Source: an uncultured Clostridia bacterium (GTDB taxonomy: Bacteria > Bacillota > Clostridia > TANB77 > CAG-508). From it: a stretch of 64,000 nt of DNA. Where the stretch lies: assembly GCA_947589265.1 (NCBI GenBank), contig CANQAI010000001.1:14484-78483 (forward strand), written 5' to 3'. The notes below the pieces were generated by a model, which saw nothing but the letters and a program-made list of their open reading frames with translations, was not told the DNA's origin and ran no database searches. The translations under genes and the position numbers were made by a program. Positions 19,031-28,900 of this stretch are shown here, piece after piece (position 1 is the stretch's first letter; every line of letters starts with the position of its first letter).

Positions 19031-19224
19031 AAATAAAAACATATATACCAAAGTAAAATGATTTTTATCAATCCAATCTTATGTAAATTTTATGAAAACG
19101 AAATATAAATATACAAAACAAAAAACGACAAATTTCGTAAATATATTTTAAAATTTTATAAATAAAACTGCTTGAATTTAATTTTTAAATATAAAATCAT
19201 TATATAAAATTTTAGAGGTAAGAA

Positions 19225-19845
19225 ATGATTGATAAATTTTGTGATTGGGTAACAAATAAAATTAAACAAGATGTAGATAACATAGATGAAGAAAAAGAAC
19301 TTGTAATTAATTTTGGGGTAAGGCTTATATTTGGTGAACTACCAAAAATACTTTTACTATTTATAATTGGTTTTCTACTAGGTATTGGCTGGTATACATT
19401 AATATTCTTCTTGCTATTATGCCCTTATCGTAGTTTTACAGGTGGCTTTCATTTAAAAACACACTTAGGATGTATAATTACAACTAGCATACTATATTTA
19501 GGTCCAATTCTACTTGCAAAATATTTACCAATACAACAGGACTATATTTTATACATAATGTCTGGAATTGTGGCAGTTTTTAGCATATTTATTATAAGTA
19601 AATATGCTCCTGCAGATACTGAAAATATACCAATTTTAACTAAAAAAGAAAGAAAATCTAAGAAGATAAAAGCTTGTATTTCATTAATTATTTTAATGGC
19701 AATTATAATATTTTACCCAAACAAATTGATTAGCTATATACTTGTTTATGGAATATTTCTACAAAATTTAACTGTTCTACCAATAGCATATAAGCTTACA
19801 AATAACAAACATGGATATGAAGTATACACAGAAGGAACAGTTTAA
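19225..19845 (+). CDS. agrB: Accessory gene regulator B (AgrB-family membrane peptidase that processes the autoinducing peptide)
   Basis: 206 aa polytopic membrane protein with the AgrB signature LLLCPYRSFTGGFHLKTH (R...GG.H) and a C-terminal basic region. Confidence 0.8.
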   Translation: MIDKFCDWVTNKIKQDVDNIDEEKELVINFGVRLIFGELPKILLLFIIGFLLGIGWYTLIFFLLLCPYRSFTGGFHLKTHLGCIITTSILYLGPILLAKYLPIQQDYILYIMSGIVAVFSIFIISKYAPADTENIPILTKKERKSKKIKACISLIILMAIIIFYPNKLISYILVYGIFLQNLTVLPIAYKLTNNKHGYEVYTEGTV

Positions 19846-19914
19846 TAATTTATGGTAATAAAGCATTTGCCGGCAATGCTTATTATAAAAATTTATTTTT
19901 AAGGAGGAATACAA

Positions 19915-20034
19915 ATGTTAAAATTATTAGCTAAAATAGCTGAAAAATATGCTCAATCAACAAATACTGCATGCTGGGTTTTAGGAATTGTTCATCAACC
20001 AAAAATGCCTGCATCTTTAATAAAAAAAGACTAA
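19915..20034 (+). CDS. agrD: Autoinducing peptide precursor AgrD (39 aa). It is not in the ORF track.
   Basis: MLKLLAKIAEKYAQSTNTACWVLGIVHQPKMPASLIKKD. It has an N-terminal amphipathic leader, a single Cys for thiolactone formation and an HQP(E/K)xP C-terminal recognition tail as in clostridial AgrD. The RBS AAGGAGG is 7 nt before the ATG and the gene follows agrB directly. Confidence 0.7.
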   Translation: MLKLLAKIAEKYAQSTNTACWVLGIVHQPKMPASLIKKD

Positions 20035-20088
20035 CACTAAAAAACAAAATAGAATATAAATATTTCCTTAAAACATAAAAACGACAAA

Positions 20089-20132
20089 AATGAGTAGCAT
20101 ATTCTTAAAAGAAAAGCTACTCATTTTTTTAT
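20089..20132. terminator. Intrinsic terminator shared by agrBD (+) and the convergent kinase gene (-)
   Basis: 10-bp stem AATGAGTAGC/GCTACTCATT with a 17-nt loop, followed by TTTTTTT. Confidence 0.65.
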
Positions 20133-20197
20133 TACACACATAAGACTTAATAAATAGTAATGCAAAAATTATATACAAATAAATATAAAAGAAAGAA

Positions 20198-21552
20198 TTA
20201 ATAATAAATTTCAAATTGTTGCACAAAAAATTCATCATTTTTAGTAGTATATAAATTTAAGTTATTATTTTTCTTTAAAATTTGCCTTACTTCCCATAAA
20301 CCAAGTCCACTATTTGTTCTTTTAGATTTAGTGGAAAAATCTTTCTCAAAAATTTTATCTATATTTATATCCTTATTTTTATAAGTATTTTCAATTACCA
20401 TAACTATTCTTTTTCGATTTTCCTCTTTCCTAAAACTAACATGAACAATTTTTTCTTCACATTCCTCAGCAGCCTCAATAGCATTATCCATTAATATACC
20501 AAGAATTCTTGTAAATTCATAAATCTTCATATATTTTTCAATTTCATTTAAATCAATAAAAATGCCTAAATTAATTTGAACACCGATTTCATCTGCTTTA
20601 TGATGCTTAGTAGCCATAATATTATAAATGGCTGGATTATTAACAACATTTGGATTAAGTGCTGTTAAATTATTTACACGATTACAATCTTTTAAAAGCT
20701 GTGAATAATACTTTTTAAGTCCTTCTATATTATTAGTTTCTATATAACCTCCAATACCTTGAACTATATTATTAAAATCATGTTTAAAACCTCTCATACT
20801 ATCATGTAATAAAATTAATGTTTTATTATATAATTGTGCTTCTTCTAGACTTCGAGAAGTTGTTTCTAATTTGGAAGTATTAAATAAACTATAAAGACTT
20901 ATGAAAAAGTATGCAAGTAGACTAACAATGCTAATAATAGTAATGGCAATTGGCATTTTATCACTGTAAAATGAAATTAATGAAAGCTGTGTACTAATTG
21001 CAATTATTCCTAATATAGTGTTTACAATAAATAGGATCTTGTGTTTCTTAGTTAAATTCTCTAAATTAATGTGCAACTTAAAATAACGAATAATTCGATA
21101 AATTAAGTATATACATAAATAAATGCTAAGTGTAAACAATATCCTATATAGAGGAATTGTCATTACAAATTCATAAGGAATATGTAAAACAGATAAGTAA
21201 AATTGGAGCATAATTAATTCTAAAACACTAATTGCAATAATTGGAAGGAATAAGGCTATAAGTGATTTGAGAATATTAGCTTTCAAAATAAATTTTATAA
21301 GCAAAAATGTAGCAATCATATTAAGAAATGTAGCATATGGATTTGGTATAAAAATTCTAGAAACGAAAGCTATAATACCCATAACAGTTACGTAAATTAT
21401 TTTTACTTTTTTAGAACACTTAATATTCAAAATAGTGGTAAATAATAACATATCTACCCAAGTTTCAACAAAACAAGATATAAAACCAATCACATTTAAA
21501 GCTACCTCATTTGGTGTTGTTAGTGCCGTCCAAATTGTTTGAAAAATTTCCA
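20198..21552 (-). CDS. AgrC-like sensor histidine kinase (HPK10 subfamily, polytopic N-terminal sensor). The ORF track extends it to 21616.
   Basis: Six or seven N-terminal transmembrane helices, H-box region LHDSMRGFKHDFNN, GHKL ATPase with ENTYKN...SGLGLW. An internal ATG at 21552 has GGAGG 9 nt upstream. The gene overlaps the 3' end of the LytTR regulator gene. Confidence 0.75.
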
Positions 21553-22253
21553 TAATTAAAAACCTCCATAAATTTATTTTTATACTTAGGACCAATAAAA
21601 CATTTAGAACTTTCATTATTATTTAGAAAAATAGTACTAGTAGAAGTATTAACATCTGTAATCTTCTCAGTATTAACAATATAAGACTTATGACACTGAA
21701 CAAACTGCTCAGGAAGTTGTGGCAAAATCTTCTTGAAAGAACTATAAGTCTCATAATCTCTTGTATCTGTATGAAAAACTACTTTCATGCCTTCTTTTTG
21801 AATATATTGAATACTATCTTGTTTAATAATAGTTTTATTATTATCCAATCTAACAAACCTAGCCTCATCGCCAGATGTATCTTCAAATAATCTAATTAAA
21901 GTTTCTTCCAACCTTTCTGCCGTAATAGGCTTAGGCAAATAATCAAAAGTTTTATATTTATATGCCATCAAACCATATTCCAAATGACCGGTGGTAAAAA
22001 TAATATATACATTTTTATCTTTTTTACGAATCATATCAGCCAAATCAAGTCCAGAAATATTAGACTTTAACTCAATATCTAAAAATACAACATTAACGTT
22101 ATGATTTTTAATAAAAGTAGCCAATTCATCTGGCTTAGTTGTGCTAAGAACAATTTGAGCATCATACTTTTTTCTTATAAAAATAGACTCTAGCATTCTT
22201 TCTAATCTATTAAGAACATTAACATTATCATCACACAATACAAAATCTAACAT
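21507..22253 (-). CDS. LytTR-family response regulator (AgrA-like)
   Basis: Receiver domain (VLCDDN...FLDIEL with D and K residues) plus a C-terminal LytTR DNA-binding domain (FVRLDNNKTIIKQDSIQYI...CHKSYIVN). Confidence 0.8.
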   Translation of the reverse strand: MLDFVLCDDNVNVLNRLERMLESIFIRKKYDAQIVLSTTKPDELATFIKNHNVNVVFLDIELKSNISGLDLADMIRKKDKNVYIIFTTGHLEYGLMAYKYKTFDYLPKPITAERLEETLIRLFEDTSGDEARFVRLDNNKTIIKQDSIQYIQKEGMKVVFHTDTRDYETYSSFKKILPQLPEQFVQCHKSYIVNTEKITDVNTSTSTIFLNNNESSKCFIGPKYKNKFMEVFNYGNFSNNLDGTNNTK

Positions 22254-22514
22254 AACTTATCCTCCGTAACTTGAAAAAAGAAGTCGACAAAAAATTACAA
22301 TATAACCAAAATTTTCCAATTATTTATTATAATATAATTAAGAATTTATATTGTCAAGATATTATTAATAATATTTTTTTCATACCTAATAGAACGTGAT
22401 TTTAAAGGAAAGGAAGATATTATAACAAAAAGAAAAATTATCCAAAAAACAAAAAACTAAAGCAAAATTTAAAAAAAATATTCTAAAAAATTTGACAAAA
22501 GTAGACAAAAGATA

Positions 22515-22595: not shown

Positions 22596-25500
22596 ATGAA
22601 AAATTTAAAGAAAATATTTTTTACAATCTTATTAATTTTTATTCTATTTTTATTAGTAGATAAAAGTGTATTTGCAAGCACAAACCAATTTCAAAATAGC
22701 GAATACTCAGAAAAATTTAAAGAATGGTTAGAACTATCAGATGAAGAAAAACAAAATGTTTTGCAACCTAGAATGTACGATGTTTTACCAACAACTACTA
22801 ATTCCAAAAATATATTTTATAAAATAAGGCTATTAGGAGCAACCATTAATTCAACATATGATTTAAGAAATATAATACCAGCCAACTTAAAAATAAGAAA
22901 TCAAATGAATACAGAAGCTTGTTGGGCTTTTGCTGCACTATCTTCATTAGAAACTAATCTCGCATTATATGATTATAAACAAAATGGAAATGTTTCAAAT
23001 CCAAAAATATATGACTTTTCTGAAAGACATATGGACTATGCTACAAGCCAAACATTTAAGAATAACGCAAAAAATGAATTTGGATATAATAGGCAAGTTG
23101 CAGATGGAGGAAATTACCTAATTGCACAATCATATTTAACAAATGGAACTGGTGCAATAAATGAATCAGATATGAAATTCGAAAATAATATGTCACCAAT
23201 AGACTTAAGTGAAATACAAGGAAAAACTATTACAAGCCAAGTATATGATACAATAGAATTTCCAGATTATAATGCAAATGCAAATTCAGCTCAAAAATCA
23301 GAAATAATGAGACAAATTAAACAGCATATAAAAGATTATGGCTCAGCATCTGCCTCAACACATTCTGACATTTCAGGCTCATGTTACAATAATACTACTG
23401 GAGCTATTTATTGCAATAATTCTGAAACTCATAAACCAAACCATAATGTTTCCATTGTAGGATGGGATGATAATTATAGCAAAACTAATTTTTCAGTAGG
23501 GGCTCAGCCTAAGTCAAACGGTGCATGGATTATTAGAAATTCAGGTGGAGAAAGATTAGAATATGATTTAGCAAGAGTAAAGCAAGAAATATTTAATATT
23601 TTAAAAGAAGGAGGAAGAGCAGAAGAATACACTAGCCCAGACCAAATTCCAAATGATTTTTTAGAATACCTAGGATATACCATTGAAGGCCAAAAAGCGT
23701 ACTTAAAACTTGGAGACAATGGCTTTATGTATGTTTCATATGAAGACTGCAATGTAGCATCACAACTTTGGGGAATAATCAAAGCAACAAACAGCGTAAA
23801 TTATGAAAATATATATCAATACGATGAATTTGCCCCAGGGAGATCAACATATATACTTAACTCTAAAGCAATGCTAGCTAATATTTTTGAAAAGGAAACT
23901 AGTGGAGATGAATATTTAACACAAGTGTCGCTATATGCACCAGAAACATATACCTGCAAAGTATATGTAAATCCTAATGGAGAAGAACGTGATGCAGAAC
24001 ACTTAACTCAAGTTAATTTAAAAGCAGGAAAAACAGAAACCTTCGGTGTGGGTTATCATACTTTAGAATTTGCTCAGCCAATTAAAATAACTGGAACTAA
24101 GTTTACAGTAGTTATAGGAATACAAGGAACAAGGGAAAAAGTGGCTATAGCATTAGAATGTAAACCTAGTGATTCTAAAGTTTTGCAGAATGTAACAATA
24201 CAAGAAGGAAAATGTTTTATTGCAGGGGGAGATAGTCTAACAAATGCTACTTGGGACGACCTTAGTAAGTTATCTCAAAAAGATGGTGAATTACCAAACG
24301 GTGATAGCACAATAAAAGCATTTACAACATCAAAATCAGATATTAAAGCATTACAAAGCATACAAGTAGTTACACCACCAACTAAAACACAATATTTAAT
24401 CGGAGAAGATTTTGAAAAAGCTGGTATGAAAGTACAAGCAAATTATAGTGATGGAACACATACTATGTTACATGATACAGACTACAGCATCACAAATGGA
24501 ACAAACTTAGTAGCAGGACAAACAAGTGTAACAATAACTTATGAGGGACAAACTACCACACAAAAAATAACAGTAGGAAACAATAATGTAACTGCATTAA
24601 CAATAGAAACTCCTCCTACAAAAACAGAATACATAGAAGGAGAAAACTTTAATCCAGCAGGTATGGTAGTAAAAGCAACATACAAAGATGGAACTACAAA
24701 AGAAGTACCACAAACAGATTATACAATAGAAGATGGTAACAATTTAGATGCAAGACAAACTACAGTAACAATTTCATATGAAGGCCAATTAGTAACACAG
24801 GCCATAACAGTAACACAAAATCTTTTATTAGGAATAAGCATAACTAAAGCACCAAACAAAACAGAATATATAGTTGGACAAAACTTTAATCCAGAAGGAA
24901 TGATTGTTACAGGAACATATCAAAACGGAACAACTCAAACTATACTAGACTACACAGTAGAAAATGGAACTAACTTAACTAAAGAACAAACTTCAGTAAC
25001 AATAAAATATAAAGATAAAACAGCAACTCAAGCTATAACAGTTGTAGAAAAAACAATTACAGCAATTTCAATAAATACAGAACCAACAAAATTAACATAT
25101 ATTAAAGAAAAAGAAAACTTAGACTTGACAGGTGGAACATTAAAAATCACATACAATGATGGAACATTTGAAACTATTCCAATGACAGCAGAAGGAGTAA
25201 CAGTAACAGGATTTAGCAATGAAAAAGTAGGAAAAGTTACAATTACAGTTACATATCAAAACAAAACAGTTCAATTTGAGGTTCAAATAGTAGAAGAAAA
25301 AGCTGAAAACTCAAATTTAAGTAATGCTACAAGTAATGTAAAAAAAGTAAAAGCTTATTTTTACACAAATGGAACCAAAAAAGATTATGTATTAATAGAT
25401 GTAGAAGTAAATAACATTTCATTAAATAAAAATAATGACAAAGTTGAATACTATTATTACTTATCATCAAATGCAAACGAAGAACAAATAACAAATTGGG

Positions 25501-25886
25501 TAAAAATTACAGAAGCACAAAATGATAATAATAAACTACAATTTACAATAGACTCAAGGAAAATTTCAAATTATAGTGAAATATCAGATGAAGGTGTTGT
25601 ATATTTATATGTAAAAGAAGTAGCAATAAAAGGTGGAGACCAAAGTGTAGAGGTTTCTAAATCAATGAAACTAGAAACAGATAAAGAAGTAGAAACTTAT
25701 GTAAATGATGTAAAAAAAGATACCTCACAAACAAATAAACCAGGAACCAATGACAAAGATGACACTACTGCACCTGGAAAAATTCCAGATACAGGAATTG
25801 CACCAGTTATTATAATTTGTATAGCAGGTTTAGCAGTATTTGGTGTGGTTACATATATTAAATACAATAAATTCAAAGAATCTTAA
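22596..25886 (+). CDS. Secreted or cell-surface C1-family papain-like cysteine peptidase with four Big_3-type Ig-like repeats and a C-terminal sorting-like signal
   Basis: Signal peptide. C1 catalytic triad contexts NTEACWAFAA (Cys), HNVSIVGWDDNY (His) and NGAWIIRNSGG (Asn). Four repeats of about 75 aa (PPTKTEYI.G..F...GM.V.A.Y.DGT...). C-terminal IPDTG followed by a hydrophobic helix and a KYNKFKES tail. Confidence 0.8.
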   Translation: MKNLKKIFFTILLIFILFLLVDKSVFASTNQFQNSEYSEKFKEWLELSDEEKQNVLQPRMYDVLPTTTNSKNIFYKIRLLGATINSTYDLRNIIPANLKIRNQMNTEACWAFAALSSLETNLALYDYKQNGNVSNPKIYDFSERHMDYATSQTFKNNAKNEFGYNRQVADGGNYLIAQSYLTNGTGAINESDMKFENNMSPIDLSEIQGKTITSQVYDTIEFPDYNANANSAQKSEIMRQIKQHIKDYGSASASTHSDISGSCYNNTTGAIYCNNSETHKPNHNVSIVGWDDNYSKTNFSVGAQPKSNGAWIIRNSGGERLEYDLARVKQEIFNILKEGGRAEEYTSPDQIPNDFLEYLGYTIEGQKAYLKLGDNGFMYVSYEDCNVASQLWGIIKATNSVNYENIYQYDEFAPGRSTYILNSKAMLANIFEKETSGDEYLTQVSLYAPETYTCKVYVNPNGEERDAEHLTQVNLKAGKTETFGVGYHTLEFAQPIKITGTKFTVVIGIQGTREKVAIALECKPSDSKVLQNVTIQEGKCFIAGGDSLTNATWDDLSKLSQKDGELPNGDSTIKAFTTSKSDIKALQSIQVVTPPTKTQYLIGEDFEKAGMKVQANYSDGTHTMLHDTDYSITNGTNLVAGQTSVTITYEGQTTTQKITVGNNNVTALTIETPPTKTEYIEGENFNPAGMVVKATYKDGTTKEVPQTDYTIEDGNNLDARQTTVTISYEGQLVTQAITVTQNLLLGISITKAPNKTEYIVGQNFNPEGMIVTGTYQNGTTQTILDYTVENGTNLTKEQTSVTIKYKDKTATQAITVVEKTITAISINTEPTKLTYIKEKENLDLTGGTLKITYNDGTFETIPMTAEGVTVTGFSNEKVGKVTITVTYQNKTVQFEVQIVEEKAENSNLSNATSNVKKVKAYFYTNGTKKDYVLIDVEVNNISLNKNNDKVEYYYYLSSNANEEQITNWVKITEAQNDNNKLQFTIDSRKISNYSEISDEGVVYLYVKEVAIKGGDQSVEVSKSMKLETDKEVETYVNDVKKDTSQTNKPGTNDKDDTTAPGKIPDTGIAPVIIICIAGLAVFGVVTYIKYNKFKES
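24340..25300 (+). repeat. Four tandem coding repeats of about 225 nt (Ig-like Big_3 domains) within the peptidase gene
   Basis: Protein-level repeats share the ETPPTKTEYIEGENFNPAGMVVKATYKDGTT...VTISYEGQ consensus. Identity is imperfect, so these are diverged repeats. Confidence 0.6.
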
Positions 25887-25985
25887 GAGAATAATTTTAA
25901 AATCAAATAAAAACAGAGAATATGTTGTTGGCTATATGCCAAACTATTCTCTTTTTTATAAATTAAAATAGAAAGGGAGCATTTT

Positions 25986-28900
25986 ATGAAGAAAAAAATT
26001 GCAAAACTTATAGGCTTACTTATTTTTATTTCAATAGTTATAGTAACTGCATGTAATATTTATAACTGGATTGTAACCGGAAAGCAACGAATAAAAATAA
26101 ATACAGCAAGTAAAGCTTATGCAAATAGTGATTTATATGTATCTATTATTGCACAAAAAAATGGAGTAGATTTAGAAACAAAAACTAAGCTAAAATTACT
26201 AAACTCTGAAGGAAAAAAAGTAAAAAATGTAGCTATTAAATATGATGGAAATAATAACATTATAAGCATCCCAGATGTTGAAGCAGGTAACTATTATATA
26301 GAAGCAAAGGTATCTAGTAAGGCAGGAAAAGACACTATACAAGAAAAGATTTATATATCTAATGAAAATATGGAAAATGTAACAATTACTTTAGATAAGG
26401 GAATATATAAGCCCGGAGATAAAGTTAATTATAGAGCATTATTAACAGCTAAAGAAAATGATGAACCTATTAGCAAAGATGTAAATGTTAGTATTTATGA
26501 TGGGAATGATAATAGAGTTTATAATGAAAACTTAAAATCTTCTGATTATGGTATAATAAGTGGAAATTTTACTTTGGCAAACGAAGTTAACAGTGGACTA
26601 TATAAATTAGTAGTAAAAACCCAAAATAGTCAAACTGAAAAACAATTTAAAGTAAATCCATATATTACGCCTAAATATGAAGTAAAAGTAAACTATGATA
26701 AAGAAAATTACTTAGTGGGAGAAACAGCAAAAATAACATTTAATGCAAAATACTTTTTTGGAGAAGCAGTTCAAAATGCTAATCTAACAGTTTATATTAA
26801 TAATGAAAAGTATAAAACATTACAAACAGATTCACAAGGAACAGCAGAAATTAGCTATCAAATAAAAGATGCTAAAAAATATGATATAAAAGTAGAAGCA
26901 GTAGACTCTTCAAATTATTTTGTTGAAACAACAAGTAGTTTTATAGCTGGAACAGACATATTTGAAGTAGAATTATTACCTGAATATGGCATACTAGCTG
27001 CAGAGAAGAATAATAACGTATACATATTTACATCTAACACAGATGGCACACCATTAAAAACATATGTTACAGTATCTTCCAATAATTTTACTAAACAAGT
27101 AGCAACAGATGAAAATGGTATTGGTAAATTCTCAATAGATATAGATAAAATAAGTGCAAATAATTATTCTGGAAGTTATAATAATAGCAAAAAAACCACA
27201 AAAGAATTTTCTATTGTAGCAGAAGACACAAAAGGAAATACAGTACGAAAAACTTTAAGCTTAACAGTAGAACAAAAGAATTTATTGGTATCAACTAATA
27301 AAGCAAAATATGAACAAGGCGAAGATATAGAAATTAACATATCTTCAATAAATGAAGCTACAAGAAATATTTATGTATTTAAAAACGACAAATTAATAAA
27401 AATGTTAAGTACAGATTTAGACAATACAAAAATAAACTTAGAAGATACTTATGGTTTAATAGATATTTATGTAACAGAAAATATAGAAAAAGAGTACAAA
27501 TATTACAATACATATGATAGCAATAAATACAAAAAAACAATATTTATAAATCCAGCTAAGAAGTTAAACATAGATATAAGTACAGATAAAAAAGAATATA
27601 AACCTGGAGGAAAAATTAATATTTCATTTAATACAGCAGATGAAAATAAAACAGGAGTAGATTCTGCTTTACTTGTAAGTATACTAGATAATTCTGTATT
27701 AAATTTAGCTAATAATGATTTATCAATAGATAATATAAAATTAGCTTTGCAAGACATAAAATTTTCAAACGAATTAGATGCAGCAAGCTTATATTCTTGT
27801 ATAGTAAATAATAAATCAGAACAAGCCATAATGGCATTATTACTAAAACAAAGCGATAAAGATATTAAAGTATCAGAAGCTAGAATATACAATTATGACC
27901 AAGAACTAAAATCAGCAATAATATCAATTATTTCAATAACAATTATTGCAATAATAGTTATTACATTTTTATGTAGAAGATTTAAAAAGTTTAGGAATAT
28001 ATTAAAACATATAATTAACTTTATAGTATATGACCTTATATTAGTTGTAATATCTATATGCATTATAGAAAAATTCTTCTGGGGAGCTAACTACTCATGG
28101 GGAATGTTTGCAATAATAACAATATTAGGATTAACAACATATATATTGCTTTTAGCTAAGTTAAATAAAAAAATATTTAGAACATCAATTTCAATAATCA
28201 TAACTTGTATGATTTTTATGTTGTTAGCTATTTTAATTAGTGAATTTGAAGTATCACCAATAGTTCTTGGCTTAATATTTGCTGTGTTATTTCTAATTAT
28301 AGTTATAATAGCAAAAATTAGCCAAGTAAAGAAATTAAAAATAGATAAATATATGCAGATTATAATTAAAGAAATATTATATATATTAAAATTTATAGGA
28401 GCATTAGTAATTTCTTTAGTTATAGGAGGAGTTATACAAGCAATAATACAAATACCTGAAGCAATAATACCAGTAACTTTAATTTGTTTATACTTATTTA
28501 ATTATTTGTTTAATAAATCAAATAAAGAGGAAAAAGAAAAAATATATTCAAAAACTATATCAATAGGACTTTCTACTTTAATAGTCTTAGCAGTAATAGG
28601 AATTATAGCAGTAGTATATGGATTAATGTATTTTGTTTCTAAGCAAGCTGGTGGCACATTAGATAATGCTGCTGTGGACTCTGACATTGTAGAAAGTGGA
28701 GGATTCGGATTAGGAAGTGTAGAGCCAGCCCCTGATAGCACATCTATATCTTCTAGCAATAATTTCTTTGATGGAGTACTTTCTGCAAATAAAGGAGAAA
28801 GCAATTCTCAGCAACAAGCAAACACTACAAACAAAGAAGAACCTCAAATTGTAAAAGATGATAATATAAGAAATGTATTTTTAGAGAGCATGTGCTTTAT

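Follow-up and report, generated by a model that had tools for sequence, protein, structure and literature searches.

The 64,000-nt stretch of DNA analysed here (the window; contig CANQAI010000001.1 of an uncultured Clostridia bacterium) almost certainly carries an intact, conserved and functional agr-type quorum-sensing module at positions 19225–22253, as judged from comparison with related genomes. The genes agrB and agrD are located on the + strand and converge with a regulator-kinase operon on the − strand. Very probably, the receptor encoded next to agrBD is the cognate one and the four genes work as one system. As a kind of system the module is ordinary, except that its signal core has seven residues where five are usual. 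Its completeness is supported by profile matches, by the conservation of catalytic residues and of gene order, and by co-variation. This bears out an earlier note on this DNA, which had proposed AgrB, AgrD, a convergent AgrC-like kinase and a LytTR regulator. The features of the module are as follows (AIP, autoinducing peptide; TM, transmembrane).

agrB, 19225–19845, + strand: 206 aa, PF04647 (E 7.8e-44), YRSFTGGFH motif, polytopic membrane cysteine endopeptidase/cyclase family.
agrD, 19915–20034, + strand: 39 aa, MLKLLAKIAEKYAQSTNTACWVLGIVHQPKMPASLIKKD, TIGR04223 32.7 bits, ribosome-binding site AAGGAGG at 19902–19908.
Parts of AgrD: leader, residues 1–19; predicted core CWVLGIV, residues 20–26; follower HQPKMPASLIKKD, residues 27–39.
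Codons of the AIP core (Cys20–Val26), 19972–19992, + strand: hypervariable positions in the entropy profile.
Bidirectional intrinsic terminator, 20086–20128, both strands: 13-bp stem with an A-run on one side and a T-run on the other.
agrC-like HPK10 kinase gene, 20198–21553, − strand: 451 aa, about 7 TM segments, H258 in an FKHDFNN box, HATPase_c_5.
Hypervariable segment of the kinase sensor, 21213–21512, − strand: residues ~14–114, nucleotide-identity trough against the near-identical relative L046.
agrA-like response-regulator gene, 21507–22253, − strand: 248 aa, REC (PF00072) and LytTR (PF04397) domains.

Relatives of AgrB are present in 45 species-level genomes. All of these were assembled from metagenomes and belong to uncultured gut Clostridia. 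The hosts are rabbit, mouse, human, ruminant and others, and Clostridium sp. CAG:508, CAG:273 and CAG:567 are among the genomes. AgrB of the window matches PF04647 with 149.7 bits (cutoff 23) and has about five TM-like segments according to its hydropathy. H76 and C83 align with H77 and C84 of S. aureus AgrB and are invariant in 45/45 homologues. The numbering of the S. aureus reference sequence in this alignment agrees with H77/C84. A PDB search found no solved structure of AgrB.

The 39-aa product of the small open reading frame (ORF) behind agrB is assigned to 'AgrD family cyclic lactone autoinducer peptide' (TIGR04223), well above the cutoff of 19. It has a single Cys (C20) and an HQPKMP tail (P-x-x-P). 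The leader is amphipathic, with a hydrophobic moment of 0.59 against 0.26 in shuffles (p 0.007). An ORF of this kind is found at the same spot after agrB in all 45 genomes, a conservation that, judged from these alignments, is far beyond chance. The AgrD described in the earlier note, with its strong ribosome-binding site, one Cys and an HQP-x-x-P tail, is thus recovered in full, and the two findings that the note named as fatal to its proposal, a small ORF not conserved in relatives and an AgrB without the catalytic His/Cys pair, did not appear in any of the 45 relatives. That agrD had been missed is true of the ORF track from which the note was written, but a length cut-off is the only cause, and relatives of the peptide are already named 'cyclic lactone autoinducer peptide' by NCBI and JGI. 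The peptide was also called a new sequence. The AgrD sequence of the window is itself already public, as are the exact window proteins (on a 99-kb NCBI contig); the part of this claim that stands is that literature searches found no characterised peptide from this Clostridia lineage.

The longest ORF of the kinase extends to 21616; the start codon that is conserved, an ATG at 21553 (MEIFQT), is located behind GGAGG. Residues 1–220 form about seven TM-like segments (hydropathy), and the HATPase_c_5 domain (PF14501) is matched with E 1.6e-17. The closest solved relative is the kinase module of S. aureus AgrC (6e52, E 1.8e-20). The His boxes of both proteins align (FkHDfnN and FrHDyvN, respectively), and H258 is invariant in 41/41 sequences. 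The 3' end of the regulator gene runs 47 nt into the start of the kinase gene. In the regulator, D8, D9, D59 and K108 are invariant in 41/41 sequences, and the LytTR domain matches S. aureus AgrA (3bs1) with E 5e-8, about equal to the top match. Between the two convergent operons, the hairpin at 20086–20128 is a bidirectional terminator for both of them, with free energies of −17.1 and −18.2 kcal/mol on the two strands (z −7.5 and −6.8).

The gene order methyltransferase – pseudouridine synthase – agrB – agrD, convergent with kinase – regulator, recurs across the 45 genomes wherever the contig reaches far enough. The GC content is uniform (26–30%) and shows no island signature. Thus, the module is a vertically inherited chromosomal locus and not an island. 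Clostridium sp. CAG:508, CAG:273 and CAG:567 probably belong to the GTDB family CAG-508 of the order TANB77, as their names suggest. This family comprises 109 gut species, of which only 2 are named (PMC13106387).

Homologues of AgrD were searched with the 39-aa peptide plus two upstream codons as query. Across species, hardly any variation is seen in the leader or in the follower HQPKMPASLIKKD (entropy 0–1.0 bits in the leader and 0–0.5 bits in the tail). The core behaves differently, with 1.5–2.4 bits at five of the six positions following Cys20. At least 96 distinct cores occur among the 126 closest public cluster sequences; all are hydrophobic with Cys1 and Gly5 fixed, and the stretch from Cys to the residue before HQP is exactly seven residues long in 126/126 parsed representatives. 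Reduced to representatives at 50% identity, the family is a small one, with 68 matches at E ≤1e-3 among 1.84 billion proteins. Here, the core has seven residues in 40 representatives, six in 9 and other lengths in a few. Distant relatives replace Gly5 of the core (CFLWSIL, CMIWHAF, CLVLALF, SFVFTIM). Two long proteins matching the AgrD profile (P0292 and P0325) were discarded as spurious repeat matches.

In the most divergent of the relatives, L041, L043 and L045 (AgrB 41–49% identical), Ser replaces the cyclising Cys and the core still has seven residues, each time preceding HQPKCP.

L041, 6689–6805: core SFVFTIM.
L043, 6694–6801: core SYVFNIF.
L045, 6687–6803: core SVIFSII.

The signals of these three relatives are therefore predicted to be lactones and not thiolactones.

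The second hypervariable region of the module is the sensor of the kinase, in which residues 21–220 have an entropy of 1.1–1.8 bits against 0.35–1.1 bits in the kinase domain. As the operons converge, ~1.2 kb of DNA separates the two hypervariable pieces. In a partial Mantel test that controls for kinase-domain and regulator distance, the core distance correlates with the sensor distance (partial r 0.355, permutation p ~5e-4). There is no correlation with the kinase-domain distance (−0.01). The same pattern is seen at close range in L046, a 4-kb ENA contig with an overall nucleotide identity of 94.8% to the window. Its core is CWILGIA where the window has CWVLGIV, and 34 of the 35 amino-acid differences in the kinase fall within residues 9–116. 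The kinase domain is 99.5% identical and the regulator 96.4%. Accordingly, the nucleotide identity drops to 66–81% at 21213–21512, with flanks mostly at 91–100%. In the sister contig L047, which carries the same agrB allele as L046, the pseudouridine synthase is 97.8% identical to that of the window. As far as these comparisons go, the co-divergence of core and sensor is the signature of agr specificity groups, and signal core and receptor sensor appear to have diversified jointly into many specificity types.

Clostridial agrBD loci often lack agrCA or have distant receptors (PMC12312760; PMC8534292), and the two operons of the window are separate and convergent. Such an arrangement could also result from an 'orphan' agrBD pair, as in C. 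perfringens and C. botulinum, located beside an unrelated LytTR system whose kinase and regulator are not cognate. This is very improbable. All four genes are linked in 45/45 genomes, the divergence of the core tracks the sensor and not the kinase domain, and in the 95%-identical relative the kinase differs almost exclusively in its sensor while the core changes. Furthermore, among solved structures the kinase comes closest to S. aureus AgrC, and the LytTR domain of AgrA is among the top matches of the regulator. These points argue for the adjacent kinase as the receptor of the peptide.

The ring size of the predicted signal can be derived by comparison with characterised precursors. AIP macrocycles listed in a 2025 primer have five residues in most cases, six in C. 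acetobutylicum (CVLVTL) and nine in GBAP (PMC12312760). Rings of five residues are by far the commonest (PMC12312760; PMC10301443). A seven-membered AIP ring was not found in the literature search, in which the ring sizes listed were five, six and nine. The C. acetobutylicum AIP is a six-residue ring without a tail, verified by mass spectrometry (MS), and R. cellulolyticum makes CWFWSY (Molloy et al., PMC8251862). The corresponding precursors read ...GKCVLVTL-YEPKMPEELL in C. acetobutylicum AgrD (PMC10301443 supplement) and ANSTCPWII-HQPK in C. difficile AgrD1 (PMC8534292; PMC12312760). Consequently, the follower starts at [HY][QE]PK.P, which is HQPKMP in the window. Six residues separate Cys20 from His27 in the window, whereas 4–5 are expected for clostridial precursors of five- or six-residue rings.

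The best reading is a seven-residue macrocycle, CWVLGIV, and we regard it as fairly probable. It is suggested by the homology of the follower, by a hypervariability that spans all six residues up to the invariant His, positions 6 and 7 among them, by the change from V to A at position 7 in the near-identical relative and by the loss of Gly5 in distant relatives. The earlier note had derived the signal from C-W-V-L-G(IV); most likely the full seven residues are used. If AgrB cut after Gly24 instead, a canonical five-residue ring CWVLG would be formed and Ile25-Val26 would leave with the follower. Five-residue rings are the most frequent ones, as stated above, and Gly5 is invariant in the 96 closest distinct cores and could be a determinant of cleavage. 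Nevertheless, the shorter ring is rather unlikely. Positions 6 and 7 (1.8 and 2.1 bits) are as hypervariable as positions 2–4, compared with 0–0.5 bits in the follower, and discarded residues are not expected to diversify. Position 7 changes from V to A between the window and L046 along with the sensor, and Gly5 is substituted in more distant members of the family. A C-terminal Gly is also atypical, as the last residue of the listed AIPs is either bulky and hydrophobic or Thr (PMC12312760), and the MS-verified C. acetobutylicum ring stops directly ahead of YEPKMP.

For the seven-residue signal, the cleavage site, the ring size and the absence of a tail are thus predictions from aligned precursors. 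An exocyclic tail is absent in every MS-verified clostridial AIP, and tail-less thiolactones rearrange into homodetic cyclopeptides (PMC8251862). The wider proposal is that a tail-less cyclo-CWVLGIV, first a thiolactone and then a homodetic heptapeptide, is one of over 100 pherotypes, each matched to a receptor, in a widespread family of gut Clostridia that is almost entirely uncultured. We consider this proposal evenly balanced between right and wrong.

The region upstream of agrB was aligned for 45 orthologous regions, which show conserved blocks split by unconserved spacers. The following candidate elements are located there and ahead of the regulator gene.

Proximal candidate LytTR pair, 19133–19162, + strand: TTTCGTAAA, 12-bp spacer, TTTTATAAA; conserved 9-bp direct repeats.
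Upstream candidate LytTR pair, 19089–19118, − strand: TTTTGTATA N12 TTTCATAAA; inverted relative to the proximal pair.
agrBD −10 hexamer TAAAAT, 19192–19197, + strand: conserved TATAAAAT block at a fixed offset from the proximal pair.
Regulator-kinase promoter of the sigma-A type, 22329–22357, − strand: TTGACA, 17 nt, TATTAT; 11/12 consensus match.

The candidate boxes have the consensus TTT[CT][GA]TA[AT]A and the 9-12-9 layout that is typical of LytTR regulators. The conserved blocks of the box pairs have 0.76–1.03 bits per column compared with 0.36 in the spacer. A −10-like hexamer follows 28–30 nt past the proximal pair in 41/45 orthologues. The promoter scan listed no −35 match for the agrBD promoter, and the lack of a good −35 is as expected for an activator-dependent promoter. 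With a position weight matrix (PWM) trained solely on the proximal pair, the upstream pair is the top paired site of the 64-kb window. In 42/45 orthologous promoters the minus-strand pair exceeds the 95th percentile of shuffles, usually ~101–125 nt upstream of the agrB ATG. The regulator would bind these repeats, and the extent of its regulon is likewise a prediction.

The earlier note had advised a search for LytTR repeats upstream of agrB, and conserved candidates do exist there in the form of the two 9-12-9 pairs. They are not the repeats originally named. The AAAACGA(A/C)A repeats at 19080–19140 are not conserved as repeats, and their first copy is not conserved in relatives. The window has six copies of the CGACAAA motif, close to a manual estimate from base composition; the one at 20082 simply reads the terminator's T-tract from the opposite strand. 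A search for paired repeats had also been advised upstream of the peptidase gene; none is found there among the 25 best paired sites in the window. The peptidase gene was rejected as a target or partner of the module, as it is adjacent in just 2/45 genomes (L009 and L019) and has its own consensus promoter.

In S. aureus, the P3 promoter drives RNAIII, and P2 and P3 are laid out with paired boxes. The two inverted box pairs of the window mirror this P2/P3 arrangement, and the upstream pair is conserved in 42/45 promoters. It might therefore serve a divergent agr-controlled promoter for a leftward small RNA or antisense transcript. This is quite improbable, since a −10 at a fixed offset is present on the left side in at most 6/45 regions, compared with 30/45 for the best offset towards agrB. 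In several genomes the coding sequence of the pseudouridine synthase starts within 10–30 nt of the pair, which leaves no room for such a −10, and the DNA to the left is poorly conserved. No Rfam family reached its gathering score anywhere in the 64-kb window. An RNAIII-like divergent transcript was rejected on these grounds. More likely, both pairs form a four-site candidate operator for agrBD.

In the promoter of the regulator-kinase operon, CTTGACA is kept in 33 of 39 orthologous upstream regions. The 5' untranslated region of this operon contains a further conserved block at 22281–22318 (− strand), AATTGGAAAATTTTGGTTATATTGTAATTTTTTGTCGAC, which is present in most of the 39 regions. The PWM scan for LytTR boxes missed this block, which might act as an operator or as an RNA element. 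Three exact copies of the 12-mer AAAAACGACAAA are present: one between the LytTR-box pairs (19121–19132), one that is the terminator's T-tract read from the opposite strand (20077–20088) and one inside an alpha-2-macroglobulin gene (27381–27392). This is probably due to chance in AT-rich DNA.

Several observations weigh against a functional module of the kind described. The host is uncultured and the module is known here from its sequence alone. The cleavage site is placed by homology of the follower motif, and the sequence in itself also permits the five-residue CWVLG. None of the S. aureus equivalog cutoffs is reached, with scores of 97.8 versus 282 for AgrB-like NF002210, 116.2 versus 500 for AgrC NF046015 and 83.4 versus 400 for AgrA NF046049. 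As these scores are far below the cutoffs, membership is given at the family level only and the proteins are not staphylococcal orthologues. The repeat consensus TTTCGTATA is unlike the S. aureus AgrA box, and PWM scores alone are no better than those of shuffles in this AT-rich window. Support for the boxes thus comes from their conserved sequence, spacing and position. Finally, no target genes of the regulator were identified in the neighbourhood or by the PWM scan of the 64-kb window, which was uninformative as to regulon members (90 matches versus a shuffle mean of 68).

Among the characterised systems, that of C. acetobutylicum is similar in several respects. Its agrBD and two-component (agrCA) operons are separate, a [Y/H][E/Q]PKMP follower comes directly after a hydrophobic core of more than five residues, and the host is a spore-former among the Clostridia; in the window yabP and yqfD are nearby. 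It differs by a core of six residues (CVLVTL, no tail) instead of seven and by a leader of 32 aa before the Cys, compared with 19 aa here. In the window, moreover, the operons are convergent, the regulator gene is ahead of the kinase gene, and no homologue of the LanM-like CA_C0082 was seen beside the module.

With agrBDCA of S. aureus the module shares all four protein families, the catalytic His/Cys pair of AgrB, the HPK10-type kinase with its His box (FkHDfnN) and D59 of the regulator. In both systems hypervariability is limited to the AgrD core and the AgrC sensor, which co-diversify into specificity types, and paired 9-bp repeats with a 12-bp spacer are located upstream of a weak promoter. 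The S. aureus ring, however, has five residues and carries a tail of 2–4 residues, whereas a ring of seven, probably without tail, is predicted here. One operon and RNAIII in S. aureus contrast with two convergent operons in the window, where no RNAIII-like gene was found. The hypervariable block of S. aureus is contiguous (agrB 3' end, agrD and agrC 5' end) and that of the window is split. The S. aureus AgrA box is ACAGTTAAG, to which the boxes of the window are unrelated in sequence.

AgrD1 of C. difficile and AgrD of C. perfringens, both from gut Clostridia, likewise have a follower of the HQPK.P / HQPEEP type immediately behind the core. A small residue (Ala or Thr) precedes the Cys in C. 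difficile (NST-C) as it does in the window (NTA-C); in C. perfringens AgrD the context is SA-C. These two precursors have five-residue cores (CPWII and CLWFT, respectively) and loci without adjacent agrCA, in contrast to the seven residues and the adjacent two-component system found here. The fsrBDCA system of E. faecalis demonstrates that enzymes of the AgrB family can make rings above 5–6 residues (GBAP is a nine-residue lactone), and the Ser-containing relatives L041, L043 and L045 would likewise yield lactones. Precursor, follower motif, ring size (9) and lineage of this system are different.

A mechanism can be proposed from the sequence and from the characterised agr systems. The amphipathic leader would anchor AgrD to the membrane. 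AgrB, with H76 and C83, would recognise the HQPKMP follower, cut between Val26 and His27 and transfer the acyl group to Cys20, giving the thiolactone CWVLGIV. Some peptidase would then remove the leader, and a tail-less product would be converted to a homodetic cyclic heptapeptide by an S-to-N acyl shift. The extracellular peptide would bind to the polytopic sensor of the AgrC-like kinase, followed by autophosphorylation at H258 and transfer of the phosphate to D59 of the regulator. The regulator may in turn bind to the 9-12-9 repeats upstream of agrB and activate the agrBD promoter that lacks a −35, which would close an autoinduction loop. Transcription of the regulator-kinase operon itself would start at a separate sigma-A promoter of consensus type.

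Much is known about agr systems in pathogens, but those of gut commensals have barely been studied; here, agr is a core-genome feature of an uncultured lineage. For genome annotation the locus offers nothing new, as standard pipelines already call these genes. Of interest to specialists are the seven-residue core with its undescribed ring size, the many core variants matched by sensor variants and the inverted double box pair. The locus provides predicted, chemically simple hydrophobic heptapeptides together with matched receptor sensor domains. Such a set could be used to probe the formation of seven-residue rings by AgrB and the roles of ring size and sequence in receptor specificity, and such signals might help in the cultivation or manipulation of the hosts. 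If more than 100 receptor-matched heptapeptide pherotypes do exist, the system would be among the most polymorphic peptide-signalling systems of the gut microbiome.

Two large genes (22596–30926) are located between the module and the conserved genes downstream. The first one encodes a 1096-aa secreted protease of the papain family (Peptidase_C1) with four Big_3 repeats and a sortase-type C-terminal anchor, and the second one a 1646-aa bacterial alpha-2-macroglobulin (MG2, A2M, TED and receptor-binding domains). Genes for a surface protease and a protease inhibitor are therefore found side by side. A polysaccharide deacetylase gene and the sporulation genes yabP and yqfD follow at 31209–33578. 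In L032, the one other genome in which the right flank was fully annotated, the regulator gene directly adjoins the polysaccharide deacetylase gene, followed by YabP- and YqfD-sized ORFs in the same order as in the window. As adjacency to the protease is rare and the order in L032 lacks it, the protease is not a conserved partner of the module. The presence of yabP and yqfD near the module indicates that the host is probably a spore-former, and sporulation might be under agr control here, as it is in C. acetobutylicum and R. cellulolyticum.

The site beside the regulator gene is altered in L002 (9293–11655). There, the adjacent deacetylase is truncated (158 aa), and behind it come a NUDIX gene and a gene for a serine recombinase (Resolvase and Recombinase domains). 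The truncation and the recombinase suggest the insertion of a mobile element. The + strand of the 64-kb window is rich in A (43% versus 29% T), and the GC skew is positive over most of its length. This may reflect a leading-strand bias, with most genes on the + strand and the regulator-kinase operon opposed to it.

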